Sequence record: OR892555.1
Length of the DNA: 64,000 nucleotides
Strand: one strand, 5' to 3'
Source of the DNA: Escherichia phage EP1
The notes beneath the pieces were generated by a model, which was not told where the DNA came from, did no database searches, and worked only from the letters and a program-made list of their open reading frames with translations. The position numbers were made by a program, and so were the translations under genes. Numbering within the stretch: position 1 is the stretch's first letter; each line of letters opens with the position of its first letter. This document shows positions 19,022 through 48,773 of the stretch, piece by piece.

Positions 19022-19050
19022 AAAAGGCTCCTTTTTACGGGAGCCTTAAA
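19022..19050. terminator. bidirectional terminator hairpin between convergent genes
   Basis: GGCTCC-loop-GGAGCC hairpin; T-run on the minus-strand side, weaker on the plus side. Confidence 0.5.
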
Positions 19051-19051
19051 C

Positions 19052-19426
19052 TTATTTTTTCTTAGCATTTTGAGTGTTCTGTTCAGTGATTGCTTGCAAA
19101 GCTGATACAGATTGTGCTAGGTTGTTAACACTGTCAGAGAATTTATCAAGGGTCTTGGTCAACTTGGCGTTTTCACCCTTTACGTTCTCTAGCTGAACCT
19201 TCTGGTTCTCCATGCCTAATTGCAGGAGTTTCATGTCAGACTGTAAATCACGAATAGCTGAATAGTTGCTTTTGTTGTAACTATCTAGCTGCTGTAACTT
19301 TGTCGAAACGGAAACTTCCTGCTTCCCACTAGACACCTGCATTGTAGTGTACATACCAATTACACTGAAGATACCCACAACAATTGCACCAATGTTATTT
19401 TTGAAAGCATCCTCTAACCACTTCAT
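19052..19426 (-). CDS. membrane-anchored coiled-coil protein (124 aa)
   Basis: N-terminal TM segment IGAIVVGIFSVIGMY followed by long coiled coil. Confidence 0.4.
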   Translation of the reverse strand: MKWLEDAFKNNIGAIVVGIFSVIGMYTTMQVSSGKQEVSVSTKLQQLDSYNKSNYSAIRDLQSDMKLLQLGMENQKVQLENVKGENAKLTKTLDKFSDSVNNLAQSVSALQAITEQNTQNAKKK

Positions 19427-19620
19427 TCTTTCTCCCCTTTAAAGGCTTTTTCCAAGTTATTAACAAATTCATCATCAATAGGCGTATCTGTCTTACTCGC
19501 AAGGTATCTTGCAAGTCTGAAGAAGGCTTTCTCAATCATGTATTCACTCAGAAGGGAAAGTAGAAGTTTCCAGAGGAAGCTACCCAAGTTTTTTAAGAGG
19601 ATTACTAGGATAGTCGGCAT
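19423..19620 (-). CDS. small hydrophobic protein (65 aa)
   Basis: ORF track; hydrophobic N-terminus ILVILLKNLGSFLWKLLLSLL; ATGA overlap with downstream gene. Confidence 0.35.
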   Translation of the reverse strand: MPTILVILLKNLGSFLWKLLLSLLSEYMIEKAFFRLARYLASKTDTPIDDEFVNNLEKAFKGEKE

Positions 19621-19699: not shown

Positions 19700-22237
19700 T
19701 TACGCCGTTCTAACCCATGCCATCAATCTGATAAACAAGTTTACAACACTGAATGCTGAACCAGAACCTGTACCACCAGTGTCACCACTAACTGTGTGGG
19801 TGTGAGCACCAATACCAACCGTGTGAGCGTGGTTACCAGCAGAAGCAGCAGTACCAGAGATTGTGTGGGTGTGAGCACCACCTGCATCAGTGTAACCTGG
19901 CCCTGTACCAAGCTTACCACCACCACCACCAGAGTAGTGAGTAGAGTTCTGACCAATCCATGAGATAGCATGTTTGTGACTACCAGCAGATGCAGCAGAA
20001 CCACTTACAGAGTGGGTATGAGCACCAGTCGTGTTAGAGGTCTTAGTACCATAGTCAAAGCTTGACGTTGTAGCTGAGAAGCTGTGAGTATGTGAAGGAA
20101 GGTGTCCTACAGCTAATGTCACAGTATCTGCACCACCAACTGTCTTAACATCTGAACCATTCGCTGCACCGATTCTGACAGTTCTACCGACACCTTCATT
20201 TAGATACGTCCAAGTTAATCCCGGAAGGGTAGTATTAGGGTTCTGGTTAGTTGCAAACCATGTTACAATACCTACAGGGTAAACTTTCTTAAGGTCTGTA
20301 GAGTCTGTAACAGCATTTGCAATCTTCTGGTCAACTTCAGTTTTAGTATATGCACCAACATCTGATGCTGAAGGTTTTAACAAGCTTGTGTAAATAGACT
20401 GGACACTACCAGAAACCATGCTAGTTGGTGGTGTTACAGAACCTTCAGGTGTTGTATACATAGATACTGCGGCATTTGAAGTGCATCTCCAACTAAAGCT
20501 AATACTGTGTGCATAACCACCAGATTTAGCGTAGATATCATAACTATTGCTACCATTCGAAACATAACCAATATCAGTAAACAATGGACTAGTGTCAGTA
20601 CTATTCCAAAGAACTGCCGTGATACCAACAGGTGTAGAGTTGTTTCCAGTCCTTAAAATAATACTAGTAGGCGCGGCTTGTGCTGTTGAGCCAGCATTAT
20701 AACCAGCACCACCTGCAAACCTCATTTCTACAGTTGATGTACTCTGTGGCATAACTACGGTTGCCACCTTAACCCATAAACCATTAGTACCTGAGCTATT
20801 TGGACTAATAGACCCAATCATTTCATATCTTAAGTCTGATAAACTTTTTGTATAATATCTTGAATCAAAGTTTGCAAAGTCTGAAGGTTTCACCTGTCCA
20901 GTGATATTCACACTTTTATTGGCGACAATCTCATTAGCAAGCTGCAAAGAACTACCAAGTATGTGGTTTTGCAATGACAGAGTTGTTGAACCATCTGAGC
21001 CAACACCAATAAACCACCTGTTAGTAGTACCATCTGAGTCTCTTGAGATGATATAAGAGGCTTTACCTGCACTGCTTGGCATTAATACTAGACCCTGACC
21101 ATCATTCTTAATGGTCTGTACACCAGTAAAGGTGTTTGCAGTATTGTTCCTTGCAATTGTAGAAAGTGTTGCAGCAGGAATAAATCTGGCATCAATGTTA
21201 GACCAATCTGTAGGCTGAACCTGTCCAGTGATTGCAAGACTCTTGTTAACTCTGACCATGTTATCAAGTAATACATAGGTATCATTTGAGATGTTTGTCA
21301 ATACAACTGAGTTGCTACCATCTGCATAGTTACCTACAGCCCACTTCATAGAAGCATCTGTGTTCTGACCTTCAATGTAAAGTGCTTTACCACTTGTCAA
21401 GTTCTTCAGAGTTAATCTTGCACCATCACCAAGTAACGTTGTAGTACCTCTGAGGGTGTTGTTTCCAGTAATCGTGTTAGCTGCTGCCAACTGAACAAAT
21501 CTTTGGTCTGCTGCATCACGAGTATAGAATCTTGCATCAAAGTTTGCGAAGTCTGAAGGAACAACCTGTCCAGTAACTTGAAGACTTTTGTTAATACCTA
21601 CAGAACCAGTACCAAGAACAATATTAGTATTCTGTTTGGTGTTTGCAATAGTAACGTCAGAACCAGAACTCAAGTTACCAATTGTGAACCTTACAGCGTT
21701 TGCTGTATCACGACCTTCATAATACAATGCAGCCGCAGCAGTGTTCTTCAAAGTCAAACCAGCATTATCTGTCTGGAAAATCTGACTTGCTGTAAAGGTA
21801 TTTTGAGTTCCCTTGATAGCAAATCTTGCATCGTTCTCATCATTAGTTCTCATCCCAAGTTCATTGGGAGATGGCTTATTCAGAGTGTGATAAACAGTTG
21901 CACTTCTTGAAGCATCTGCAATAGTCAGTTTAAGACCATTTGCATTAAGCTTGAAAGTTTTTGCAGTGTCACCGAAGACAATTTCGGAGTTACCTGTTGG
22001 GTCAAGTAAATCTTTTCCCCCATAGGTAAGCTTTACAATTCCTAAATTACCTGTCATGGTTCCACCAACTAATTGCAGAAATCTTTCCAGTCTAAATGAT
22101 GCAAGGAAATCCGCATAAGTCATTCTACGGTCTTCATCACCTAGCATCTCAGTTCTTTTCTTAACTCTGACATGCAATAGGTCATCAGAACGAATCTCAC
22201 TAATCGAGTTTAATTCACTCAATTTAAATTCTGCCAT
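19700..22237 (-). CDS. tail fiber protein with tail-collar-like domain and His-rich C-terminal repeats
   Basis: Three internal repeats NKSL.ITGQV.PSDF.NFD.R.YT; tail-collar-like VYPVGIVTWFATN...LPGLTWTYL; C-terminal GAHTHS/GSHKHA/GAHTHT His boxes. Confidence 0.7.
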   Translation of the reverse strand: MAEFKLSELNSISEIRSDDLLHVRVKKRTEMLGDEDRRMTYADFLASFRLERFLQLVGGTMTGNLGIVKLTYGGKDLLDPTGNSEIVFGDTAKTFKLNANGLKLTIADASRSATVYHTLNKPSPNELGMRTNDENDARFAIKGTQNTFTASQIFQTDNAGLTLKNTAAAALYYEGRDTANAVRFTIGNLSSGSDVTIANTKQNTNIVLGTGSVGINKSLQVTGQVVPSDFANFDARFYTRDAADQRFVQLAAANTITGNNTLRGTTTLLGDGARLTLKNLTSGKALYIEGQNTDASMKWAVGNYADGSNSVVLTNISNDTYVLLDNMVRVNKSLAITGQVQPTDWSNIDARFIPAATLSTIARNNTANTFTGVQTIKNDGQGLVLMPSSAGKASYIISRDSDGTTNRWFIGVGSDGSTTLSLQNHILGSSLQLANEIVANKSVNITGQVKPSDFANFDSRYYTKSLSDLRYEMIGSISPNSSGTNGLWVKVATVVMPQSTSTVEMRFAGGAGYNAGSTAQAAPTSIILRTGNNSTPVGITAVLWNSTDTSPLFTDIGYVSNGSNSYDIYAKSGGYAHSISFSWRCTSNAAVSMYTTPEGSVTPPTSMVSGSVQSIYTSLLKPSASDVGAYTKTEVDQKIANAVTDSTDLKKVYPVGIVTWFATNQNPNTTLPGLTWTYLNEGVGRTVRIGAANGSDVKTVGGADTVTLAVGHLPSHTHSFSATTSSFDYGTKTSNTTGAHTHSVSGSAASAGSHKHAISWIGQNSTHYSGGGGGKLGTGPGYTDAGGAHTHTISGTAASAGNHAHTVGIGAHTHTVSGDTGGTGSGSAFSVVNLFIRLMAWVRTA

Positions 22238-22249
22238 TATACAATCCTC

Positions 22250-22275
22250 TTAAAAGGGGCTAAAAAGCCCCTATT
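22250..22275 (-). terminator. rho-independent terminator between the two fiber genes
   Basis: AGGGGCT-aaaa-AGCCCCT hairpin followed by U-run on the minus strand. Confidence 0.45.
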
Positions 22276-22279
22276 ATAA

Positions 22280-23428
22280 TTAAGCAGTTCTCTGCCATAC
22301 ATATAGAACAAATGATGGCTGTTCAATGTTAAATGCCTGACCAGAACCAGTTGAGCCAGTTGTACCAGAGTGAGAGTGTTCACCTGCACCTGTAACAGTT
22401 ACAGTAGCCGTATGCGAGTGGCTACCAATTGATACAGAGTGGCTATGAGCACCAATCGCTACAGTATGAGTGTGCGCACCAATCGCTACAGTGTGCGTAT
22501 GGTTGTTAGCGGTTGTCAGAGTGGCTCTTGGGTCATAGTCTGCACCAACTACTGAAAGTCCCGGATGACTCCCTGGGTCATAACCACGGTTAATCCACGT
22601 TGTCTGAGTGAATCCAGCAGAACTCGTAGTTTTATTACCATAGTTAAATGATGATGTGGTCTTAGTACCATAATCAAATGTTGTAGTGCTTCTATTCCCA
22701 TAGTCAAATGAACTGATTGAAGCAGTTGCACCATGTGAGTGACCACCACCTGTAACGTACACTGAGTGAGTGTGAGCAGGGATGTTATTAGCTGTCAATG
22801 CAGCAGTCTGTGAACCAAATGTCGAACCTGCTGGTCTAGAAGCACTGTCATAACCTACAAGCGCTCTACCTCTTGAAACCAGTTCCCAAGTACCTCCACA
22901 AATCAGGTAAGTAGATGGGTTAGCAGCATTCATCGACAAGTGGATAGTACCAACTGGATATGAAGCCTGAACAGCTCTGTATAGACTATTAACTGCTCTT
23001 GCTGTAGCATACTTATCAGCATCTTCATTATATGCGTTGGAGGCTAACCAGTTCTGAACATTACCCAAACCAACTTGTGATTTAGTTGTGTTGTGAGGGT
23101 TATTCTTATCATTAATGTGAGCCTGAATAAGTTGATTAACTTCATCAGAAGACATAATCTGTAAGTTCGCTCTTGCTTCAGCTACGTCAACGATATCTGA
23201 TAAGTTATTTGCAGCGACAAGCTGTAAAGCATTTAAGACATTACCTAATTCAACCTGAACTTTTGTGACACCGTGAGGGTTATTCCTCAAGGATGCGTGA
23301 GGGTCAAGTAGTTGTTCAAGTGTACATCTCTTGTCTTCAATACCTTGTTTAAGGTGGAAGATATCACTTAACTCAATTGGTAATGATGCTTGAGGCAAGG
23401 CACTAATTTGAATTTCACCTACTGCCAT
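22280..23428 (-). CDS. tail fiber / receptor-binding protein, paralogous C-terminus to the 845-aa fiber
   Basis: Tail-collar-like YPVGTIHLSMNAANPSTYLICGGTWEL; C-terminal HTHTVAIGAHTHTVAIGAHSHSVSIGSHSHT. Confidence 0.65.
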   Translation of the reverse strand: MAVGEIQISALPQASLPIELSDIFHLKQGIEDKRCTLEQLLDPHASLRNNPHGVTKVQVELGNVLNALQLVAANNLSDIVDVAEARANLQIMSSDEVNQLIQAHINDKNNPHNTTKSQVGLGNVQNWLASNAYNEDADKYATARAVNSLYRAVQASYPVGTIHLSMNAANPSTYLICGGTWELVSRGRALVGYDSASRPAGSTFGSQTAALTANNIPAHTHSVYVTGGGHSHGATASISSFDYGNRSTTTFDYGTKTTSSFNYGNKTTSSAGFTQTTWINRGYDPGSHPGLSVVGADYDPRATLTTANNHTHTVAIGAHTHTVAIGAHSHSVSIGSHSHTATVTVTGAGEHSHSGTTGSTGSGQAFNIEQPSFVLYVWQRTA

Positions 23429-43195: not shown

Positions 43196-43271
43196 TGGAG
43201 CGTCGAAAGGGAGTCGAACCCTCATAATCCTGTTTTGCAGACAGGTACATAGCCATTTCTGTCATCGACGC
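43196..43271 (-). tRNA. tRNA-Cys (anticodon GCA)
   Basis: Acceptor halves 43200-43206/43265-43271 pair; T-arm AAGGG-AGTCGAA-CCCTC (reverse-complement view); anticodon loop CUGCAAA; CCA encoded. Confidence 0.7.
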
Positions 43272-43277
43272 ATTAAT

Positions 43278-43369
43278 TGGAGGAAGATACCAGACTTGAA
43301 CTGGTACGCCGATTTCTCGGTTACTGACAGTTTAGCAAACTGTCCCCTTACCTTTAGGGTTAATCTTCC
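43278..43369 (-). tRNA. tRNA-Ser (anticodon GCU), long variable arm
   Basis: 92 nt; acceptor GGAAGAT/ATCTTCC; anticodon stem ACAGT/ACTGT with loop UUGCUAA. Confidence 0.7.
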
Positions 43370-43371
43370 AA

Positions 43372-44103
43372 TTATTTATTCAAGGCATCCTTCATTTCTG
43401 GAGTTGCAATTGAATCAATCACGCCAGATTTACAGGAATCATCAAACCAGTCTGGTAAGATACCTGCAAGGAAACCATTAATATTTGTTTTCAAGTAATC
43501 AGCAATCAAAGCCGCTTCATCTGCAATCATCTGAGCCACTTCATTAGCATAGGCAGTAATCTTTGCCATACCATCATTAATCGCTGTAACAGCTTGTGTA
43601 GCGAGGTCAGAGATGGTTGCTAGTCCTTTATCAATTGCATCCTGTAAGTCGCTTAGAACGCTGTTTACGGCATCTATAGAGGTATTAATCAAATCCATAG
43701 CCTTGTTACCGTATTCAGTAGCAACTCCCATGATTCCACTAAACGGTGTACAACCAACTTGTTCACCTGCTGCTCCCATAACATTAGAGTAACCTTTAGC
43801 TACTTGCATACGTTGTGAAAACTCATCTACAGACTTCTGTCCATATTGAGTCAGTGTGTTAGTTGTCGTTGTAGTGCTTCCAAGGCTAGTTGAGAAGCTA
43901 CTTAACAAGGCTGTAGTCAAACCAGCAGCAATAAGTTTATCTTTTACTGTAGGGTCTGATACCGAGCTAATAGAGCTTACTAATGAAGTAGAAGCGGCAA
44001 CTGTACCACCAAGAACTGCTGCACCAGTAATAAGAGGGTTAGAGAACCCGTTACCGGATTTAAGGAGACTGAAAATCTCTTTACCTTGTCCTGTCATCTC
44101 TTT
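43372..44103 (-). CDS. Ser/Thr/Ala-rich protein embedded in the tRNA array
   Basis: ORF trimmed to MKEMTGQ so it does not overlap the adjacent tRNA; low-complexity S/T-rich centre. Confidence 0.4.
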   Translation of the reverse strand, partial: KEMTGQGKEIFSLLKSGNGFSNPLITGAAVLGGTVAASTSLVSSISSVSDPTVKDKLIAAGLTTALLSSFSTSLGSTTTTTNTLTQYGQKSVDEFSQRMQVAKGYSNVMGAAGEQVGCTPFSGIMGVATEYGNKAMDLINTSIDAVNSVLSDLQDAIDKGLATISDLATQAVTAINDGMAKITAYANEVAQMIADEAALIADYLKTNINGFLAGILPDWFDDSCKSGVIDSIATPEMKDALNK

Positions 44104-44122
44104 CATTATGCACCTATAAAAT

Positions 44123-44199
44123 TGGTAGCCCATCGGGATTTGAACCCTGTTCTCATGTTTTTCAGACACGCGCTTTAACCATATAAGCTAATTGAGCTA
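44123..44199 (-). tRNA. tRNA, tentative Phe (anticodon GAA), atypical T-stem and acceptor/D-arm linker
   Basis: T-loop ATTTGAA with 3-bp GGG/CCC stem; anticodon loop CUGAAAA; acceptor TAGCTCA/TGGGCTA pairs with one G-U. Confidence 0.45.
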
Positions 44200-44206
44200 T
44201 TAAAAT

Positions 44207-44283
44207 TGGGGTGACCTACGGGAATCGAACCCGTATAGACCATGTTCACAGCATGGGTCATTATCCATTTATGATAAGGCCAC
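44207..44283 (-). tRNA. tRNA-His (anticodon GUG)
   Basis: T-arm ACGGG-AATCGAA-CCCGT; anticodon stem CCATG/CATGG with loop CUGUGAA; D-stem TCAT/ATGA. Confidence 0.7.
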
Positions 44284-44314
44284 ATGTAAGGACTCTCGTA
44301 AGAACCCTTAGAGG

Positions 44315-44390
44315 TGGCAGCAGCGTAAGGATTTGAACCTTAATCTTTCAGCTTCAGAGGCTGGAGCATTGCCAGTTATGCTACACTGCT
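44315..44390 (-). tRNA. tRNA-Gln (anticodon CUG)
   Basis: T-arm TAAGG-ATTTGAA-CCTTA; anticodon loop CUCUGAA; D-stem GCAT/ATGC. Confidence 0.65.
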
Positions 44391-44397
44391 ATTAATT

Positions 44398-44468
44398 TGG
44401 TACTCCATATCGGATTCGAACCGATACATAACACAGATTTTAAGTCTGGCCTCTCTGCCAATTGGAGT
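44398..44468 (-). tRNA. tRNA-like gene, anticodon loop reads UAA (Leu-type) but D-arm appears truncated
   Basis: Perfect T-arm ATCGG-ATTCGAA-CCGAT and 6-bp acceptor; only about 10 nt available for the D-arm. Confidence 0.4.
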
Positions 44469-44478
44469 AATGGAGCAT

Positions 44479-44554
44479 TGGCGGGGGATGTTGGAATTGA
44501 ACCAACTTCTTCGATTTCAAAGACCGAGGTTTTAACCTTGTAAACTAATCCCCT
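44479..44554 (-). tRNA. tRNA-Gln (anticodon UUG)
   Basis: T-arm GTTGG-AATTGAA-CCAAC; anticodon loop CUUUGAA; D-stem GTTT/AAAC. Confidence 0.6.
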
Positions 44555-44562
44555 TTAAATCT

Positions 44563-45120
44563 TTACTTTCTTAGTGGATGAATAAAGAATGCCAACATAA
44601 TTCTTTCCCTTGAGAATGCTCTTTCTTCTGGGACAACACTTTTAAGTTTCCATCCAACATAAATTCTCCAGTAAAACTGTTTACCAAAGACTTTAATTGA
44701 TGGGATAAAAGCGAATAATCCCCAAGCATTCCTATTCCACATCAGGAGATAACCTGTCTGATTATCTTCAGGGTTAGAACTTACGTTGATATTACCTTTC
44801 CACTTAGTAACATCTTTTACATCTCTTCCTAATACATGGTAAGAGAAGTTATAAGCTTTGTTTCTCCAGAGCCACCCAACTCTCTGCATATAAACACCAA
44901 GCTTACCAATCTTTCTAATCTTAGCCCATCGCTCAACGTGACCTTTGTCACCGTCAATTGGGTTATCATAAGTTTCCATCCATCTGAATCCAAAAGGTAG
45001 ATGGCCTTTCTTCTCACTGTAGAATGGAACAACAAAAGGTGCTAAGATTACTGCTAAGATTGCTGCAAATGGCTCTAGCAAAGCTAGGAAAATCCATGAA
45101 GCATACTTCAAATATCTCAT
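44563..45120 (-). CDS. membrane protein embedded in the tRNA array
   Basis: ORF trimmed to MRYLKYAS to avoid tRNA overlap; N-terminal TM segment ASWIFLALLEPFAAILAVILAPFVV. Confidence 0.4.
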   Translation of the reverse strand: MRYLKYASWIFLALLEPFAAILAVILAPFVVPFYSEKKGHLPFGFRWMETYDNPIDGDKGHVERWAKIRKIGKLGVYMQRVGWLWRNKAYNFSYHVLGRDVKDVTKWKGNINVSSNPEDNQTGYLLMWNRNAWGLFAFIPSIKVFGKQFYWRIYVGWKLKSVVPEERAFSRERIMLAFFIHPLRK

Positions 45121-45140
45121 TTTAAATAGCCTCTTTAAAT

Positions 45141-45216
45141 TGGTGCAGAATAAGGGATTCGAACCCCTATTAACAGCTTCGTAGACTGTTGCTCTATCCA
45201 TTTGAACTAATCCTGC
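45141..45216 (-). tRNA. tRNA-Arg (anticodon ACG)
   Basis: T-arm AAGGG-ATTCGAA-CCCCT; anticodon loop CUACGAA. Confidence 0.6.
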
Positions 45217-45330
45217 TTCCCTACGAGAACACCATACAGTTTTTCACAAACTTTGTTTTTACGTCTGTTTAGGTATGACGCTCTAAACTTTTTTGCGATG
45301 GAGTTATTGCTCATAGTGCTCTCCTCAAAT

Positions 45331-45408
45331 TGGTGTTCCAAGACGGATTCGAACCGTCACTAATACAAGGTTTGAGCTTGCATCCTCTGCCAATTGGGAT
45401 ACTGGAAC
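45331..45408 (-). tRNA. tRNA with anticodon CAA (Leu-type) but short variable region
   Basis: Well-formed cloverleaf in reverse complement (acceptor GTTCCAG/TTGGAAC, D-loop AATTGGCAG, T-loop TTCGAAT); anticodon loop CUCAAAC; 78 nt. Confidence 0.55.
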
Positions 45409-45410
45409 AT

Positions 45411-45485
45411 TGGTACTCGCTGAAGGAATTGAACCTTCTTTACCAACTTGTAAGGATGGGGCTTTACCGTATAAACTAAGCGAGT
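45411..45485 (-). tRNA. tRNA-Val (anticodon UAC)
   Basis: Acceptor ACTCGCT/AGCGAGT perfect; T-arm GAAGG-AATTGAA-CCTTC; anticodon loop CUUACAA. Confidence 0.65.
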
Positions 45486-45490
45486 ATGAA

Positions 45491-45578
45491 AAGAGGTCTG
45501 AAGTTGTGCCGCTAACTCAACTCCGTGGAATTTGTTACGGTCTTCAGTTGACTCAAGCGGTCTTTCACTCGACCTCTG
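45491..45578. ncRNA. structured element with acceptor-like terminal stem but no T-loop (candidate small RNA or degenerate tRNA)
   Basis: AGAGGTC (45492-45498) pairs with GACCTCT (45571-45577); internal hairpin CTGAAG...CTTCAG; fills a tRNA-sized gap in the array. Confidence 0.3.
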
Positions 45579-45581
45579 AAA

Positions 45582-45658
45582 TGGTGCTGCTCACAGGACT
45601 CGAACCTGCATTTCCATCCTTACAAGGGATGTGTAATAGCCAATTATACGAAAGCAGC
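45582..45658 (-). tRNA. tRNA-Thr (anticodon UGU)
   Basis: T-arm ACAGG-ACTCGAA-CCTGC; anticodon stem CATCC/GGATG with loop CUUGUAA. Confidence 0.7.
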
Positions 45659-45664
45659 ATTGTT

Positions 45665-45739
45665 TGGAGCATCCAGAGGGAATCGAACCCTCAACCTCAG
45701 TTTGGAAGACTGTAATTTTCCCGTTTAAACTATGGATGC
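45665..45739 (-). tRNA. tRNA-Gly (anticodon UCC)
   Basis: Acceptor GCATCCA/TGGATGC perfect; T-arm GAGGG-AATCGAA-CCCTC; anticodon loop CUUCCAA. Confidence 0.65.
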
Positions 45740-45745
45740 ACTAAT

Positions 45746-45821
45746 TGGTGGAGAAGCAGGGAATTGAACCCTGTACTTAAGTTTGCAAAACTTATGTTTT
45801 AACCATGTAAACTACATCCCC
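45746..45821 (-). tRNA. tRNA-Ala (anticodon UGC)
   Basis: T-arm CAGGG-AATTGAA-CCCTG; anticodon stem TAAGT/ACTTA with loop UUUGCAA. Confidence 0.65.
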
Positions 45822-45827
45822 AATGTT

Positions 45828-45903
45828 TGGTACAGGTGGAGGGAATTGAACCCATCATCTTACTGATTAAGAGTCAGCCGCATAACCATTTTGCTACACC
45901 TGC
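45828..45903 (-). tRNA. tRNA-Lys (anticodon CUU), tentative
   Basis: T-loop AATTGAA with GGG/CCC stem; anticodon loop CUCUUAA; acceptor ACAGGTG/CACCTGC. Confidence 0.55.
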
Positions 45904-45910
45904 ATTAATT

Positions 45911-45988
45911 TGGTAGGAGACAAGGGATTCGAACCCTCAAACACCAACTTCTAAGGATGGTAGGTTTACCAATTACCGTCAATCTCCC
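45911..45988 (-). tRNA. tRNA with anticodon UAG (Leu-type) but short variable region, structure partly unresolved
   Basis: T-arm AAGGG-ATTCGAA-CCCTC; acceptor with two G-U pairs; anticodon loop CUUAGAA; D-loop AATTGGTAA. Confidence 0.45.
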
Positions 45989-46052
45989 ATTAAATCTTTG
46001 TAGAGAACTGCTAAGACGCCAAAGCAACAATGGTATCAAATGCCTTAACAAT

Positions 46053-46080
46053 TCTCTAAAAAGACCTAACTGGTCTTTGC
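46053..46080 (-). terminator. hairpin, possible minus-strand terminator inside the tRNA array (weak)
   Basis: AAAGACC-taact-GGTCTTT stem followed by short U-run on the minus strand. Confidence 0.3.
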
Positions 46081-46229
46081 ATAGTCTTGTTTAATCCGGT
46101 GACTATAACCTTTGGAGAGCTTGATATTATCTCTTCTCCGTGACACCTACTAGGTGCTTTGTTGTGCGTGTACGACAATACACGAGGGAAACCGAACGCT
46201 GTACCAGAGCGTGGGCTTAAATCTCATTA

Positions 46230-46319
46230 GGCGGTAGATAAAGGAGTCGAACCCTCACCGTATCACTACAATGGCAATTGTTTTCAAGACAATTTGGCTT
46301 CCATTAGCCGCTATCTACC
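46230..46319 (-). tRNA. tRNA-Ser (anticodon UGA), long variable arm
   Basis: Acceptor GGTAGAT/ATCTACC; anticodon stem ATTGT/ACAAT with loop CUUGAAA; about 87 nt. Confidence 0.65.
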
Positions 46320-46332
46320 CCTAATAAGACTG

Positions 46333-46737
46333 TTAAACCTCTAACAGTCCTGCATGAACTTTCCTATGACAGTTAGAACACAGTACAACACATTTTCTAA
46401 CTTCTCTCTTAATAGTCCCTCTAGAGTAAGTCTTTAAATTGCTAGGTTCAAAGTCTTTTTCATTTGGGTCTAAATGGTGGAAGTCTAATGCTACTGGTTC
46501 AGATTCACCACAAACTCTGCATTTGCAGATTCTTTTGTATCGGTTAAGAAACTCTCTGTTTCTTTTTCTGTCAGCTACCGCCCTAATTTTCCTTTTAGCT
46601 TTATAAGTTGGGTCTTCTTGATACTTCTTAGAAGAGTATTTGGATTTGCAATCTTTGCATACTGACTGGTATCCATTACCACGCTTATGAAAACAACTTA
46701 AAGGTTTTTCTTGTGAGCATTTTCTACAAAGTTTCAT
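46333..46737 (-). CDS. HNH homing endonuclease inserted in the tRNA array
   Basis: Cys-rich zinc-binding N-terminus; HNH core DFHHLDPNEK ... CSNCHRKVH. Confidence 0.65.
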   Translation of the reverse strand: MKLCRKCSQEKPLSCFHKRGNGYQSVCKDCKSKYSSKKYQEDPTYKAKRKIRAVADRKRNREFLNRYKRICKCRVCGESEPVALDFHHLDPNEKDFEPSNLKTYSRGTIKREVRKCVVLCSNCHRKVHAGLLEV

Positions 46738-46751
46738 ACAAGTACCTATTC

Positions 46752-46822
46752 TGGCAGGGGTGTAGAGATTCGAACTCTAATCAAGAATTTTGGAGACTCT
46801 ATTGCTGCCTTAGCTCACCCCT
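46752..46822 (-). tRNA. tRNA-Trp (anticodon CCA), tentative
   Basis: Acceptor AGGGGTG/CACCCCT perfect; T-arm TAGAG-ATTCGAA-CTCTA; anticodon loop CUCCAAA; short D-arm. Confidence 0.6.
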
Positions 46823-46993
46823 ATTAACACTATAATTCGAAGCTTACCGTATTGTCACAACACTGTCAAGCCTCTTCTCAGATTATTTACATGTTCTGGA
46901 AAACATGAGATACAGACCACCTCCTTATGAAGTTGACTCATCTGAATCAACACGGAGACCCGCTAAGGTCGTCTAAGTAATCTGCTAACTAAT

Positions 46994-47070
46994 TGGCACA
47001 CCCTACAGGGCTCGAACCTGTAACTCAGTGCTTAGAAGGCACTTGCTCTATCCAATTGAACTAAGGGTGC
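46994..47070 (-). tRNA. tRNA-Arg (anticodon UCU)
   Basis: T-arm ACAGG-GCTCGAA-CCTGT; anticodon stem AGTGC/GCACT with loop CUUCUAA. Confidence 0.7.
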
Positions 47071-47320
47071 ATTCTTATCTTTAAAGGCTCTCTTAGAAAA
47101 CCCTTAAAGATGCCCACCTTATTAATCATACCGTGGGCGAGTACGCCAAATTCTTTGATGAGGGGTTGGAAGACCTCACTGGTGTTTAGCCTATTAAGCT
47201 ACTGCCAGAAAAACATTATCGTTTGCATTTATTTTAGTTTGCAAAAATAGACGCTACGCTAACGAAAACTAAGGTTACTATAAAGTGGTCACATCTGAAT
47301 GTCAACAACTTTATCGAATT

Positions 47321-47396
47321 TGGTAGTGGTAGCAGGAATCGAACCTGCGATGTTCGGTTATCAGCCGAGTGTTATGACCGTCTTAACTATACCACC
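47321..47396 (-). tRNA. tRNA-Ile (anticodon GAU)
   Basis: T-arm GCAGG-AATCGAA-CCTGC; anticodon loop CUGAUAA. Confidence 0.6.
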
Positions 47397-47398
47397 AT

Positions 47399-47475
47399 TG
47401 GAGGTTCAGATGGGATTCGAACCCACATTCATAGGGCTTATGAAACCCTTGCATTACCTTATCTGCGACTGAACC
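47399..47475 (-). tRNA. tRNA-Met (anticodon CAU), G-C-rich anticodon stem
   Basis: Acceptor GGTTCAG/CTGAACC perfect; T-arm ATGGG-ATTCGAA-CCCAC; anticodon stem AGGGC/ACCCT with loop UUCAUAA. Confidence 0.65.
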
Positions 47476-47554
47476 ATAATAAGTTGCCCTTTGGAGAAGA
47501 ACTATTGAGTGGGTGTTTCCAGCCGCGCAGGTGTTCTTCAGTTAAGGGCGAATT
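47476..47554. ncRNA. structured element with acceptor-like terminal stem but no T-loop (candidate small RNA)
   Basis: TTGCCCT (about 47484-47490) pairs with AGGGCGA (about 47544-47550); shares a TTCAGTT motif with the element at 45491. Confidence 0.25.
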
Positions 47555-47630
47555 TGGTAGGAGTGGAGGGATTCGAACCCGTCGCCTGTCAGATTAAAAG
47601 TCTGCCGCATCACCATTCTGCTACACTCCC
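47555..47630 (-). tRNA. tRNA-Lys (anticodon UUU)
   Basis: T-loop ATTCGAA with GGG/CCC stem; anticodon stem TCAGA/TCTGC with loop CUUUUAA. Confidence 0.65.
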
Positions 47631-47775
47631 ATTAAATCATCTTTGCAGTAACCTACGCAAACCTTGCTAAAGGGTTTGTAGAGTCATTTCCTATTAAGCT
47701 AATCTAGAATCATGCTAAGGAAATTCATCGGCACTCATGGGACGACATTTAGCTCCATAAGCCACTGCAAAGAGG

Positions 47776-47907
47776 ATTACCAGACCGTTGTTTTATCTTA
47801 AGTGCTCCCATTACACCAACACGCCGTAACGTGTGAAGGAATCGAACCTTCGCCTTTTCTTTACCAGAGAAATAGATTGTTTAATACTTGCTGTAAACGG
47901 TCTTCTG
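47776..47907 (-). ncRNA. tRNA-like RNA lacking a canonical acceptor stem, enclosed by a long-range stem (candidate Y-RNA-like or pseudo-tRNA)
   Basis: Minus strand reads AGACCGTT...[anticodon-like arm TTTCT-CTGGTAA-AGAAA][T-arm GAAGG-TTCGATT-CCTTC][hairpin ACACG-TTACGG-CGTGT]...AACGGTCT; ends pair over 8 bp. Confidence 0.4.
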
Positions 47908-47919
47908 TAAATTTGTTGA

Positions 47920-47993
47920 GCCAGACCAAGTTTTAAATTATTCAAATTAATTGGCTTGAAATTTTTAAGTTGGCTTGCTGAATTTGGTCTTCT
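47920..47993 (-). repeat. hairpin spacer module, copy B1 (CAGAAGACCAA ... TTGGTCTGG)
   Basis: AGACCAA (47922-47928) complementary to TTGGTCT (47983-47989); conserved flanks shared with copies at 47779, 48388, 48544. Confidence 0.5.
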
Positions 47994-48055
47994 GCTCCTT
48001 TAAAGAATACTCGTAAGAACTCTTTAAGGGATGGGCTAAAAAGCCCTCTCAAATT

Positions 48056-48133
48056 TGGCGGTTACGAAGGGATTCGAACCCTCATCATCTCCCGTGACAG
48101 GGGAGTATTTTAACCAGATTAAACTACATAACC
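48056..48133 (-). tRNA. tRNA-Asp (anticodon GUC)
   Basis: T-arm AAGGG-ATTCGAA-CCCTC; anticodon stem CTCCC/GGGAG with loop CUGUCAC. Confidence 0.7.
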
Positions 48134-48139
48134 TTTGTT

Positions 48140-48227
48140 TGGTGCGCCGTGAAGGAGTCGAACCTACCGAGTCATAATGACAAGTGATTTACAGTCACCA
48201 CCGCTTCCATCTACGGGATAACGACGC
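48140..48227 (-). tRNA. tRNA-Tyr (anticodon GUA), long variable arm
   Basis: 88 nt; T-arm GAAGG-AGTCGAA-CCTAC; anticodon loop CUGUAAA. Confidence 0.65.
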
Positions 48228-48297
48228 ATTTTATTCTATTCAGGCTAAGGACTTGCACCTTACAAATCGGTGAGCATTACGCTTCTCTCCCAAATCT

Positions 48298-48374
48298 TGG
48301 CGGTGAGTTAGGGATTCGAACCCTATACCATTCGGTTAACAGCCGACCGCACATGCCTTATGTGCTTCCTCACC
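48298..48374 (-). tRNA. tRNA-Asn (anticodon GUU)
   Basis: T-arm TAGGG-ATTCGAA-CCCTA; anticodon loop CUGUUAA. Confidence 0.7.
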
Positions 48375-48387
48375 ATGTTTAGTATTG

Positions 48388-48449
48388 CCAGACCGTATCT
48401 TTTCATTTTTTCCTATAAAAATTTTGAGATTGCTGTAAACGGTCTTCTG
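48388..48449 (-). repeat. hairpin spacer module, copy A2 (CAGAAGACCGT ... ACGGTCTGG)
   Basis: AGACCGT (48390-48396) complementary to ACGGTCT (48439-48445); lies between tRNA-Asn and the CAU tRNA. Confidence 0.5.
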
Positions 48450-48455
48450 CAAATT

Positions 48456-48532
48456 TGGAGGCGGGTGTTGGAGTCGAACCAACCGTTACCATGCTAATGA
48501 GACATGTGAGACACCCTTTCTCTATACCCGCG
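48456..48532 (-). tRNA. tRNA with anticodon CAU (Met, fMet or Ile-lysidine type)
   Basis: T-arm GTTGG-AGTCGAA-CCAAC; D-stem GAGA/TCTC; anticodon loop CUCAUUA; position 1-72 mismatched. Confidence 0.6.
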
Positions 48533-48543
48533 ATTCTTAATGA

Positions 48544-48607
48544 CCAGACCAAGTTTTATTTTCTATAAGCGAAGAAAGTTTTTTAACTTGCTGAATTTGG
48601 TCTTCTG
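48544..48607 (-). repeat. hairpin spacer module, copy B2 (CAGAAGACCAA ... TTGGTCTGG)
   Basis: AGACCAA (48546-48552) complementary to TTGGTCT (48597-48603). Confidence 0.5.
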
Positions 48608-48614
48608 TCAAATT

Positions 48615-48689
48615 TGGAGTCGTAGACGGGATTCGAACCCGCGAGCAACTGATTGAAGGTCAGGTGGCTAACCATTTGCCTTCTACGAC
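48615..48689 (-). tRNA. tRNA-Glu (anticodon UUC), tentative (C at position 33)
   Basis: Acceptor GTCGTAG/CTACGAC perfect; T-arm ACGGG-ATTCGAA-CCCGC; anticodon loop CCUUCAA. Confidence 0.55.
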
Positions 48690-48696
48690 ATTAATT

Positions 48697-48773
48697 TGGT
48701 CTCCGTTGAGGGAGTTGAACCCTCGACCCCTTGCTCCCAAAGCAAGTGCTCTGCCAAACTGAGCTAAACGGAA
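48697..48773 (-). tRNA. tRNA-Pro (anticodon UGG)
   Basis: T-arm GAGGG-AGTTGAA-CCCTC; anticodon stem CTTGC/GCAAG with loop UUUGGGA. Confidence 0.7.

Follow-up and report, generated by a model that had tools for sequence, protein, structure and literature searches.

Two adjacent genes at positions 19700-23428 of Escherichia phage EP1 (sequence record OR892555.1) encode proteins that diverge at their N-termini and share a histidine-rich module at their C-termini. All positions refer to the window, by which we mean the whole stretch of 64,000 nucleotides (nt) that was analyzed. The locus raises the question of what these two proteins are, and of whether the shared module reflects a recombinational exchange of receptor-binding tips, as was suggested in an initial annotation. 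The genes are here referred to as those of the short tail fiber (STF; 22280-23428, 382 residues) and the long tail fiber (LTF; 19700-22237, 845 residues). Both are located on the minus strand, as are all of their parts described below, and they are separated by a spacer of 42 nt. We estimate a probability of about 0.9 that the locus encodes the two side fibers of a Suspvirus (Ounavirinae) myophage, each ending in a receptor-binding tip of the type found in gp37 of phage T4.

The initial annotation described stacked histidine (His) boxes at the ends of both fibers, and this was borne out by the motif counts. LTF contains six HxH motifs and STF contains seven, split around a short segment, the head, with three motifs before and three after it in LTF, and two before and five after it in STF. 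To obtain an expectation, each protein was shuffled 5000 times. The shuffled proteins contained on average 0.37 motifs for LTF and 1.1 motifs for STF, with maxima of 4 and 6, and the observed numbers of six and seven were never reached. The segment in front of the boxes, which had been described as similar to a tail collar, was found in both proteins and corresponds to the Pfam family Gp10_C (PF21939), with matches at residues 154-248 of STF (E = 1.9e-18) and residues 650-759 of LTF (E = 4.5e-06). The Pfam phage tail collar family (PF07484) displayed no match in STF or LTF and was seen only in more distant STF homologs.

Searches against the PDB showed that the resemblance to the HxH repeats of the T4 long tail fiber tip, previously noted from the appearance of the boxes, is a true homology. 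Both proteins matched the crystal structure of the T4 gp37 tip (2XGF) in phmmer searches (E = 1.3e-16 for LTF and 1.7e-12 for STF). The alignments take in the SSFDYGTK motif and the descending HxH boxes, continue through a short middle segment that is not conserved, and include the ascending boxes of the IGAHTHTV type. Profiles built from the two families matched the same structure with E-values of 2e-17 for LTF (11 homologs) and 1.8e-30 for STF (66 homologs), and the collar of the STF profile also matched T4 gp10. The ladder of His boxes is conserved in both families. Among 55 LTF sequences, four motifs are invariant, including His 716/718/740/742, and the two motifs next to the head occur in 47-48 of the sequences. 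Among 66 STF sequences, the His residues of the motifs are retained in 57-66, while the adjacent residues vary. Thus, the C-termini carry a conserved ladder that is homologous to a crystal structure, rather than being disordered regions without a conserved His ladder, which was the contrary outcome named in the initial annotation.

Database comparisons placed both the region and the proteins. The DNA of the region is 92-96% identical to that of phages of the genus Suspvirus (Ounavirinae, Felix O1-like myophages), and the nearest relatives are mistaenkt, SUSP1/SUSP2, PC79-13 and EcSzw. LTF is 100% identical to WQY99578.1, deposited under the name 'long tail fiber protein' [Escherichia phage EP1], and STF is identical to WQY99579.1 (phage EP1, 'tail fiber protein') and to QHR67972.1 of mistaenkt. 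In PHROG, STF belongs to family 2097 ('tail fiber protein', E = 1e-123) and LTF matches family 4277 over its full length; a search of NCBIfam gave no family for either protein. UniRef places the identical STF protein under Mooglevirus, which is an inconsistency of annotation.

Based on T4 and on the fibers of Bas63 (Escherichia phage JohannRWettstein, genus Felixounavirus), we propose the following architecture. Each fiber would be a homotrimer, with the N-terminal domain docked on the baseplate and followed by a shaft. The shaft would consist of helix-turn motifs in STF, and of domains of ~110 residues with connectors, followed by a beta-sandwich knob, in LTF. From the gp10-like collar, the chain would then descend as a needle strand, turn in a small variable head and ascend to the collar, where a final hydrophobic strand (...WxRTA) would rejoin it; the three chains together would form a six-stranded needle. 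In each HxH layer, the three chains would present six His residues around one octahedrally coordinated metal ion, which is iron in T4, and therefore six such sites are predicted in LTF and seven in STF. Contact with the core of lipopolysaccharide (LPS), the known receptor class of the subfamily, is probably made by the head; Felix O1-like phages have been reported to use LPS, and Bas63 requires an intact LPS core. By analogy with T4 and Bas63, LTF may make the first, reversible contact and STF a later one. The structure of the genes, the homology, the counts and conservation of the motifs, and the limits of the mosaic are results of the present analysis; we infer the formation of trimers, the binding of metal, the identity of the receptor and the order of binding from T4, Bas63 and the Shigella phage Sf14.

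Several results weigh against this architecture. The AlphaFold2 monomer models displayed predicted local distance difference test (pLDDT) values of only 30-70 in the needles and heads of both fibers, with means of 61.6 for STF and 57.2 for residues 460-845 of LTF, and the confident parts were the STF collar and the LTF knob. A Foldseek search of the PDB with the STF monomer gave no match at E <= 0.001; the top weak matches were gp10 C-terminal domains and a fiber tip from Bizionia. The alignment to 2XGF covers both strands of the needle, but confidence in the needles is low in the monomer models. Thus, the hairpin topology is derived from sequence homology and not from the models. The folding of T4 gp37 requires the chaperones gp38 and gp57A, and no fiber chaperone family was found among the flanking proteins of 65, 124 and 104 residues, in a scan limited to the flanking genes. 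Finally, mistaenkt is a viable isolate in which LTF is devoid of the head and of two HxH motifs, which suggests that the LTF head may be non-essential on some hosts.

The larger fiber was also reported to contain three internal copies of NKSL.ITGQV.PSDF.NFD.R.YT. All three are present, and they close three shaft repeat domains of ~110 residues (20837-21847; residues 131-243, 244-358 and 359-467), each of which ends with the connector NKSLxITGQVxPSDFxNFDxRY. The connectors begin at residues 216, 331 and 440, have the consensus end R(F/Y) and appear at the DNA level as direct repeat D1; the connector residues are invariant across 11 LTFs. The repeat units themselves are 35-39% identical in pairwise comparisons, correspond to three copies of the Pfam domain gp37_trimer (PF20744, E = 2.6e-52) and match the T7 gp17 structures 4A0T/4A0U. 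The third unit is followed by the knob (20363-20836; residues 468-625), which has no Pfam family. The knob was confidently predicted as a beta-sandwich in the monomer model of residues 460-845; its closest folds are the N-terminal domains of tailspikes, and matches to lectins and carbohydrate-binding modules (CBMs) were weak.

Breakpoints of recombination were sought by alignment with relatives, as proposed in the initial annotation. Such breakpoints were found, but the replaced part is an internal cassette of LTF and not the tip. The cassette (20300-21193; LTF residues ~347-646) comprises the third repeat, the knob and a linker, and is replaced in comparison with every close relative from Suspvirus. 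Against mistaenkt, the DNA remains 95-100% identical as far down as position ~21193, where the identity drops within a few bases. Inside the cassette, the identity is 7-67% per 100-nt interval; it amounts to 54-60% in alignable stretches free of large gaps and is lower across long gaps. Below position ~20300, it recovers gradually to 85-92%. The sharp junction at ~21193 is located in the codons of the second connector (...TGQVQPTDWxNID), a motif that does not vary in the family and of which the LTF gene contains three copies. At the position of the knob, SUSP2, PC79-13 and mistaenkt contain a different, shorter domain (Pfam gp37_C, PF12604), and the lengths of the fibers therefore differ: 782 residues in SUSP2 and PC79-13, 733 in mistaenkt and 845 in EP1.

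The layout of the EP1 cassette is of the Felixounavirus type, and it is 29-50% identical, region by region, to ten LTF homologs (six of the Felixounavirus type and four from Suspvirus). At 90% clustering among ~15 billion sequences, the EP1 LTF is a singleton. An exhaustive HMMER search with the knob alone against 1.84 billion representatives identified 156 related clusters, in fibers of very different lengths, with 40-44% identity for the best-scoring matches to the full domain. Accordingly, no donor of the cassette above ~50% identity was found among the homologs compared, nor for the knob among the 1.84 billion representatives. Tail proteins of Salmonella prophages, with ~46% identity over half of the cassette, were obtained in a word-indexed search that did not return the query's own protein, and were set aside.

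The variability of the LTF shaft domains puzzled the authors of the Bas63 study, who offered three explanations, variable host recognition being one of them (PMC12609058). The sharp junction within a connector suggests a further explanation, namely exchange of cassettes at the conserved connectors. In its full form, the hypothesis would be that the EP1 LTF gained a two-domain cassette, consisting of shaft domain 4 and the knob, by a crossover at a connector, and that the knob serves as a lateral receptor-binding site that has retargeted the phage while leaving the gp37-like tip untouched. We regard this as a speculative and rather unlikely scenario. If true, the connector motifs would be general crossover points that drive the variability of LTF shafts in the Ounavirinae.

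The same data can be read in other ways, both for the nature of the two proteins and for their history. The low pLDDT of the His stretches in the monomer models, together with a composition rich in G, S, T, A and H, could indicate low-complexity or disordered, metal-scavenging tails without an ordered ladder. This reading is barely credible, given the homology of these stretches to an ordered crystal structure, the near-complete conservation of every His pair by position while the neighboring residues vary, and the low confidence to be expected when an intertwined, metal-dependent trimer is modelled as a monomer. Hardly more probable is the notion that the 382-residue protein belongs to the baseplate wedge or tail pin, in the manner of T4 gp10/gp11, rather than being a fiber, although its Pfam match is to Gp10_C, its PDB matches include T4 gp10, and the STF-identical protein of mistaenkt (MN850587, QHR67972.1) is annotated as 'baseplate wedge subunit and tail pin'. 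The likeness to gp10 is confined to the collar of ~70 residues, whereas the rest of the protein matches the gp37 needle with the E-value of 1.8e-30 given above. In addition, PHROG 2097 is a family of tail fibers, and the STF of Bas63, gp26, has been seen by cryo-electron microscopy (cryo-EM) as a 430-Å fiber on wedge 2A (PMC12609058). The label 'tail pin' on the mistaenkt protein is thus misleading, caused by the gp10-like collar only.

With regard to history, a recent exchange by recombination or gene conversion between the two fiber genes, or wholesale swapping of tips in EP1, would account for the identical order of domains in the two C-termini and for their common peptide motifs SFDYGTK and IGAHTHTV, and the head subdomains are indeed hypervariable across the family. 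We nevertheless consider a recent event of this kind very unlikely. The C-termini of STF and LTF are 27% identical over ~200 residues (BLASTP, E = 1e-11), and the likeness at the DNA level is limited to patches of 25-48 nt with 65-88% identity over conserved peptide motifs, which shows that the tips are old paralogs and not recent exchange partners. The tips of EP1 are also conserved in comparison with the nearest relatives, at 93-100% identity, and the segment that has been replaced is internal (LTF 347-646). STF is 95-100% identical to its nearest relatives throughout, and the few differences to SUSP2 cluster in the needle and head. In LTF, identity to the SUSP-type relatives is 97-100% for residues 1-346, and identity to the closest relatives is 91-100% for residues 651-845. 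The part of the original proposal that stands concerns the family level, where the head is the swapped or hypervariable part: the LTF heads fall into two classes of alleles, 86-96% versus 17-27% identical to the EP1 head, while identity in the needle flanks is 67-86% before the head and 57-90% after it. Variable tips were also reported by the authors of the Bas63 study (PMC12609058). A different view of host range is that its main determinant in LTF is the internal cassette, acting as a lateral glycan-binding site, with a tip that is mostly structural. Consistent with this view, no part other than the cassette differs from the close relatives, the knob is a confident beta-sandwich with tailspike-like folds and weak lectin/CBM-like matches, the knob module occurs in many unrelated fibers, mistaenkt tolerates the loss of the LTF head, and variable host recognition is among the published explanations of shaft variability (PMC12609058). 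We find this possible but doubtful.

Viewed as a side fiber with a tip of the gp37 type, STF is divided into six parts. The N-terminal region and the helix-turn shaft (22994-23428; residues ~1-145) were predicted as helices in the AlphaFold2 monomer, and the median identity of the N-terminus across 65 homologs is 95%; by analogy with Bas63, its role would be to bind the baseplate. The shaft contains the element NNPHxxTKxQVxLGNV twice, 60 residues apart (23058-23105 and 23238-23285; direct repeat D7), which is probably the counterpart of the 'triple alpha-helix and turn' of Bas63. The collar, of the T4 gp10 C-terminal type (Pfam Gp10_C, 22784-22993; residues ~146-215), matched the PDB entries 2FKK and 5HX2. 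With a pLDDT of 81-89, it is the sole part of STF modelled with confidence, apart from the strand beside it. The descending needle strand (22625-22783; residues ~216-268) contains HxH motifs at residues 219 and 230, followed by three SFDYGxKxT repeats (D4/D6), and its His residues are retained in 65 of 66 homologs. The head (22505-22624; residues ~269-308) aligns to the head region of T4 gp37 and is predicted to form the hairpin turn and, presumably, the receptor contact. It is hypervariable, with a median identity of 15% across the 65 homologs as compared to 58-77% in its flanks. The ascending needle strand (22361-22504; residues ~309-356) contains HxH motifs at residues 310, 319, 328, 337 and 351. 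Its IGAH(T/S)H(T/S)V boxes are encoded by a tandem repeat of 27 nt in 2.7 copies with 80% matches (22424-22495). Most of the aligned STF relatives contain nine HxH motifs, as compared to seven in EP1; the number of motifs is thus variable in the family, perhaps owing to slippage or unequal recombination. The C-terminal strand (...GQAFNIEQPSFVLYVWQRTA; 22280-22360), which would return to the collar according to the topology of Bas63 and T4, has a pLDDT of 82-86 beside the collar and contains the invariant residues W378 and R380.

The LTF begins with the N-terminal domain and a first shaft domain (21848-22237; residues 1-130), which are 98-100% identical to Suspvirus LTFs and 81-84% identical to Felixounavirus LTFs; binding of the baseplate is again assigned to the N-terminal domain by analogy with Bas63. 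Beyond the shaft repeats and the knob, the collar (20102-20287; residues ~651-712) is 93% identical to that of the Suspvirus relatives. The descending needle strand (19964-20101; residues ~713-758), with HxH motifs at residues 716, 740 and 754 and the SSFDYGTK motif, aligns to 2XGF. The head SWIGQNSTHYSGGGGGKLGTGPGYTDAGG (19877-19963; residues ~759-787) aligns to the head segment of T4, and as in STF it is the predicted hairpin turn and presumed receptor contact. The ascending needle strand and the C-terminal strand (...AFSVVNLFIRLMAWVRTA; 19700-19876) contain HxH motifs at residues 789, 803 and 812, and the last 25 residues are 100% identical to those of the Suspvirus relatives.

Two additional observations were made on the LTF genes of the relatives. 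In EcSzw_1, there is a second mosaic patch, with 100% identity to EP1 in residues 1-130 and 97% in residues 244-346, and with 86% in residues 131-243. In mistaenkt (MN850587), LTF is devoid of 49 residues that correspond to residues 748-796 of the EP1 LTF (window positions 19829-20027), so that the entire head and the two HxH motifs closest to it are lost. The deletion ends at two direct repeats of 52 nt, which are 79% identical, located 147 nt apart and encode SG(S/T)AASAG and the next codons. A natural head-less allele of LTF with a shorter needle, in a viable isolate, is a mildly new point.

Along the direction of transcription, a 489-residue Baseplate_J protein is followed by a 285-residue baseplate protein, an open reading frame (ORF) of 104 residues, STF and LTF. 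The STF-LTF spacer contains a GC-rich hairpin of 7 bp on the coding strand (22255-22272; AGGGGCT-TTTT-AGCCCCT), directly past the STF stop codon and followed by TTT and the Shine-Dalgarno sequence of LTF, AAGAGGA. The hairpin could tune the ratio of STF to LTF expression, either as an attenuator or as an element of mRNA stability. LTF is followed by ORFs of 65 and 124 residues, a bidirectional terminator and the convergent genes for dihydrofolate reductase and thymidylate synthase. The two small genes (19052-19620, minus strand) gave no match that accounts for either protein in the family searches. The 124-residue protein has one predicted membrane segment and a long coiled coil; its gene is labelled 'holin' in the records of mistaenkt and SUSP2, and in the PC79-13 record both small genes are hypothetical. 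In Sf14, the product of a nearby gene, gp55 ('holin or lysozyme'), has been detected in virions by mass spectrometry (PMC11821841). The terminator (19024-19047), between thymidylate synthase on the plus strand and the fiber and lysis-side genes on the minus strand, is a perfect bidirectional intrinsic hairpin with T-runs on both strands. Elsewhere in the window, 24 tRNA genes are clustered at 43196-48773 on the minus strand, among them tRNA-His(GTG). This cluster presumably agrees with the organization of Felix O1-like genomes. A paper from 2026 that names Suspvirus alongside TolC-dependent phages is not about phage EP1 and was set aside.

The significance of these results is limited in that they re-identify two annotated fiber genes with an architecture that is already known. 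For this reason, the identification matters little in itself and serves as a positive control of what can be read from a sequence alone. The mapping of a natural recombination cut inside a connector motif of LTF has a modest practical value for the engineering of host range in Ounavirinae phages. Mildly new is the unique internal cassette in LTF, with unchanged tips and with its junction in a connector motif. The cassette and the head-less allele of mistaenkt both bear on the question of which part of LTF sets the host range.

The closest known system is Bas63, for which a cryo-EM study has described an STF of 430 Å (gp26) and an LTF of 630 Å (gp27), and thereby the architecture for the subfamily (Sci Adv 2025; PMC12609058). 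In both fibers, a conserved domain at the N-terminus binds the baseplate and the tip is gp37-like, consisting of a collar, an HxH needle and a head, with seven HxH motifs in STF and six in LTF, and the gene order is wedge 2 (489 residues), wedge 1 (285 residues), LTF platform, STF and LTF (PMC12609058). The EP1 locus is the same in gene order, in the lengths of both wedge proteins (489 and 285 residues) and in the HxH counts (7/6), with STF and LTF as the counterparts of gp26 and gp27; for the fibers, the comparison is with the published description, and no Bas63 fiber chain was matched in the PDB search with the two EP1 fibers. In the Bas63 LTF, conserved motifs separate five repeat domains, which have been likened to the rod of T4 gp34 (PMC12609058). 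The EP1 LTF similarly has a shaft of repeated domains with conserved connectors (three gp37_trimer units and flanking domains), and phmmer and profile searches against the PDB gave no sequence match to the T4 gp34 structure 5NXH. These two phages are assigned to separate genera, EP1 to Suspvirus and Bas63 to Felixounavirus. Over the C-terminal 499 residues, Felixounavirus LTFs are 55-63% identical to the EP1 LTF; for STF, identity to the more distant relatives is ~60-75%. They also differ in the mode of variation: shaft variability was described as point divergence with unchanged domains in the Bas63 study (PMC12609058), whereas in Suspvirus a whole cassette has been exchanged and the fifth domain changes in both type and length.

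The tip of T4 gp37 (2XGF) shares with the EP1 fibers the needle, the SSFDYGTK motif, the HxH boxes of the IGAHTHTV type, the short head and the hydrophobic C-terminal strand, whereas the head sequences of the EP1 fibers are unrelated to that of gp37. In T4, gp37 is the distal quarter of a fiber built from four proteins. Unlike in T4, the whole fiber in EP1 comes from a single polypeptide. With the C-terminal domain of T4 gp10 (2FKK, PF21939), only the collar of ~70 residues is held in common, and gp10 has no HxH needle. The pyramid domain of T7 gp17 (4A0T/4A0U) matches the shaft repeats of the EP1 LTF, which are tandem modules of a shaft and not a terminal domain.

A second virion with the same equipment is that of Shigella phage Sf14, of another genus (Mooglevirus, as compared to Suspvirus for EP1), and the likeness is again by description. 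Sf14 has two fibers per baseplate, gp52 and gp53, the counterparts of STF and LTF, both of which were found by mass spectrometry; the longer one has a gp37-like distal tip, each fiber apparently consists of one protein, and the authors found no homologs of the Mu fiber chaperones gp50/gp51 (PMC11821841). The domain organization of the Sf14 fibers was considered identical by the authors of the Bas63 study (PMC12609058). In the RBPseg atlas, the fibers of the Ounavirinae constitute class TC6, in which a gp10-like domain joins a T4-like needle tip (PMC12143355). Judged by the order of domains, the layout of the EP1 fibers is exactly that of TC6.

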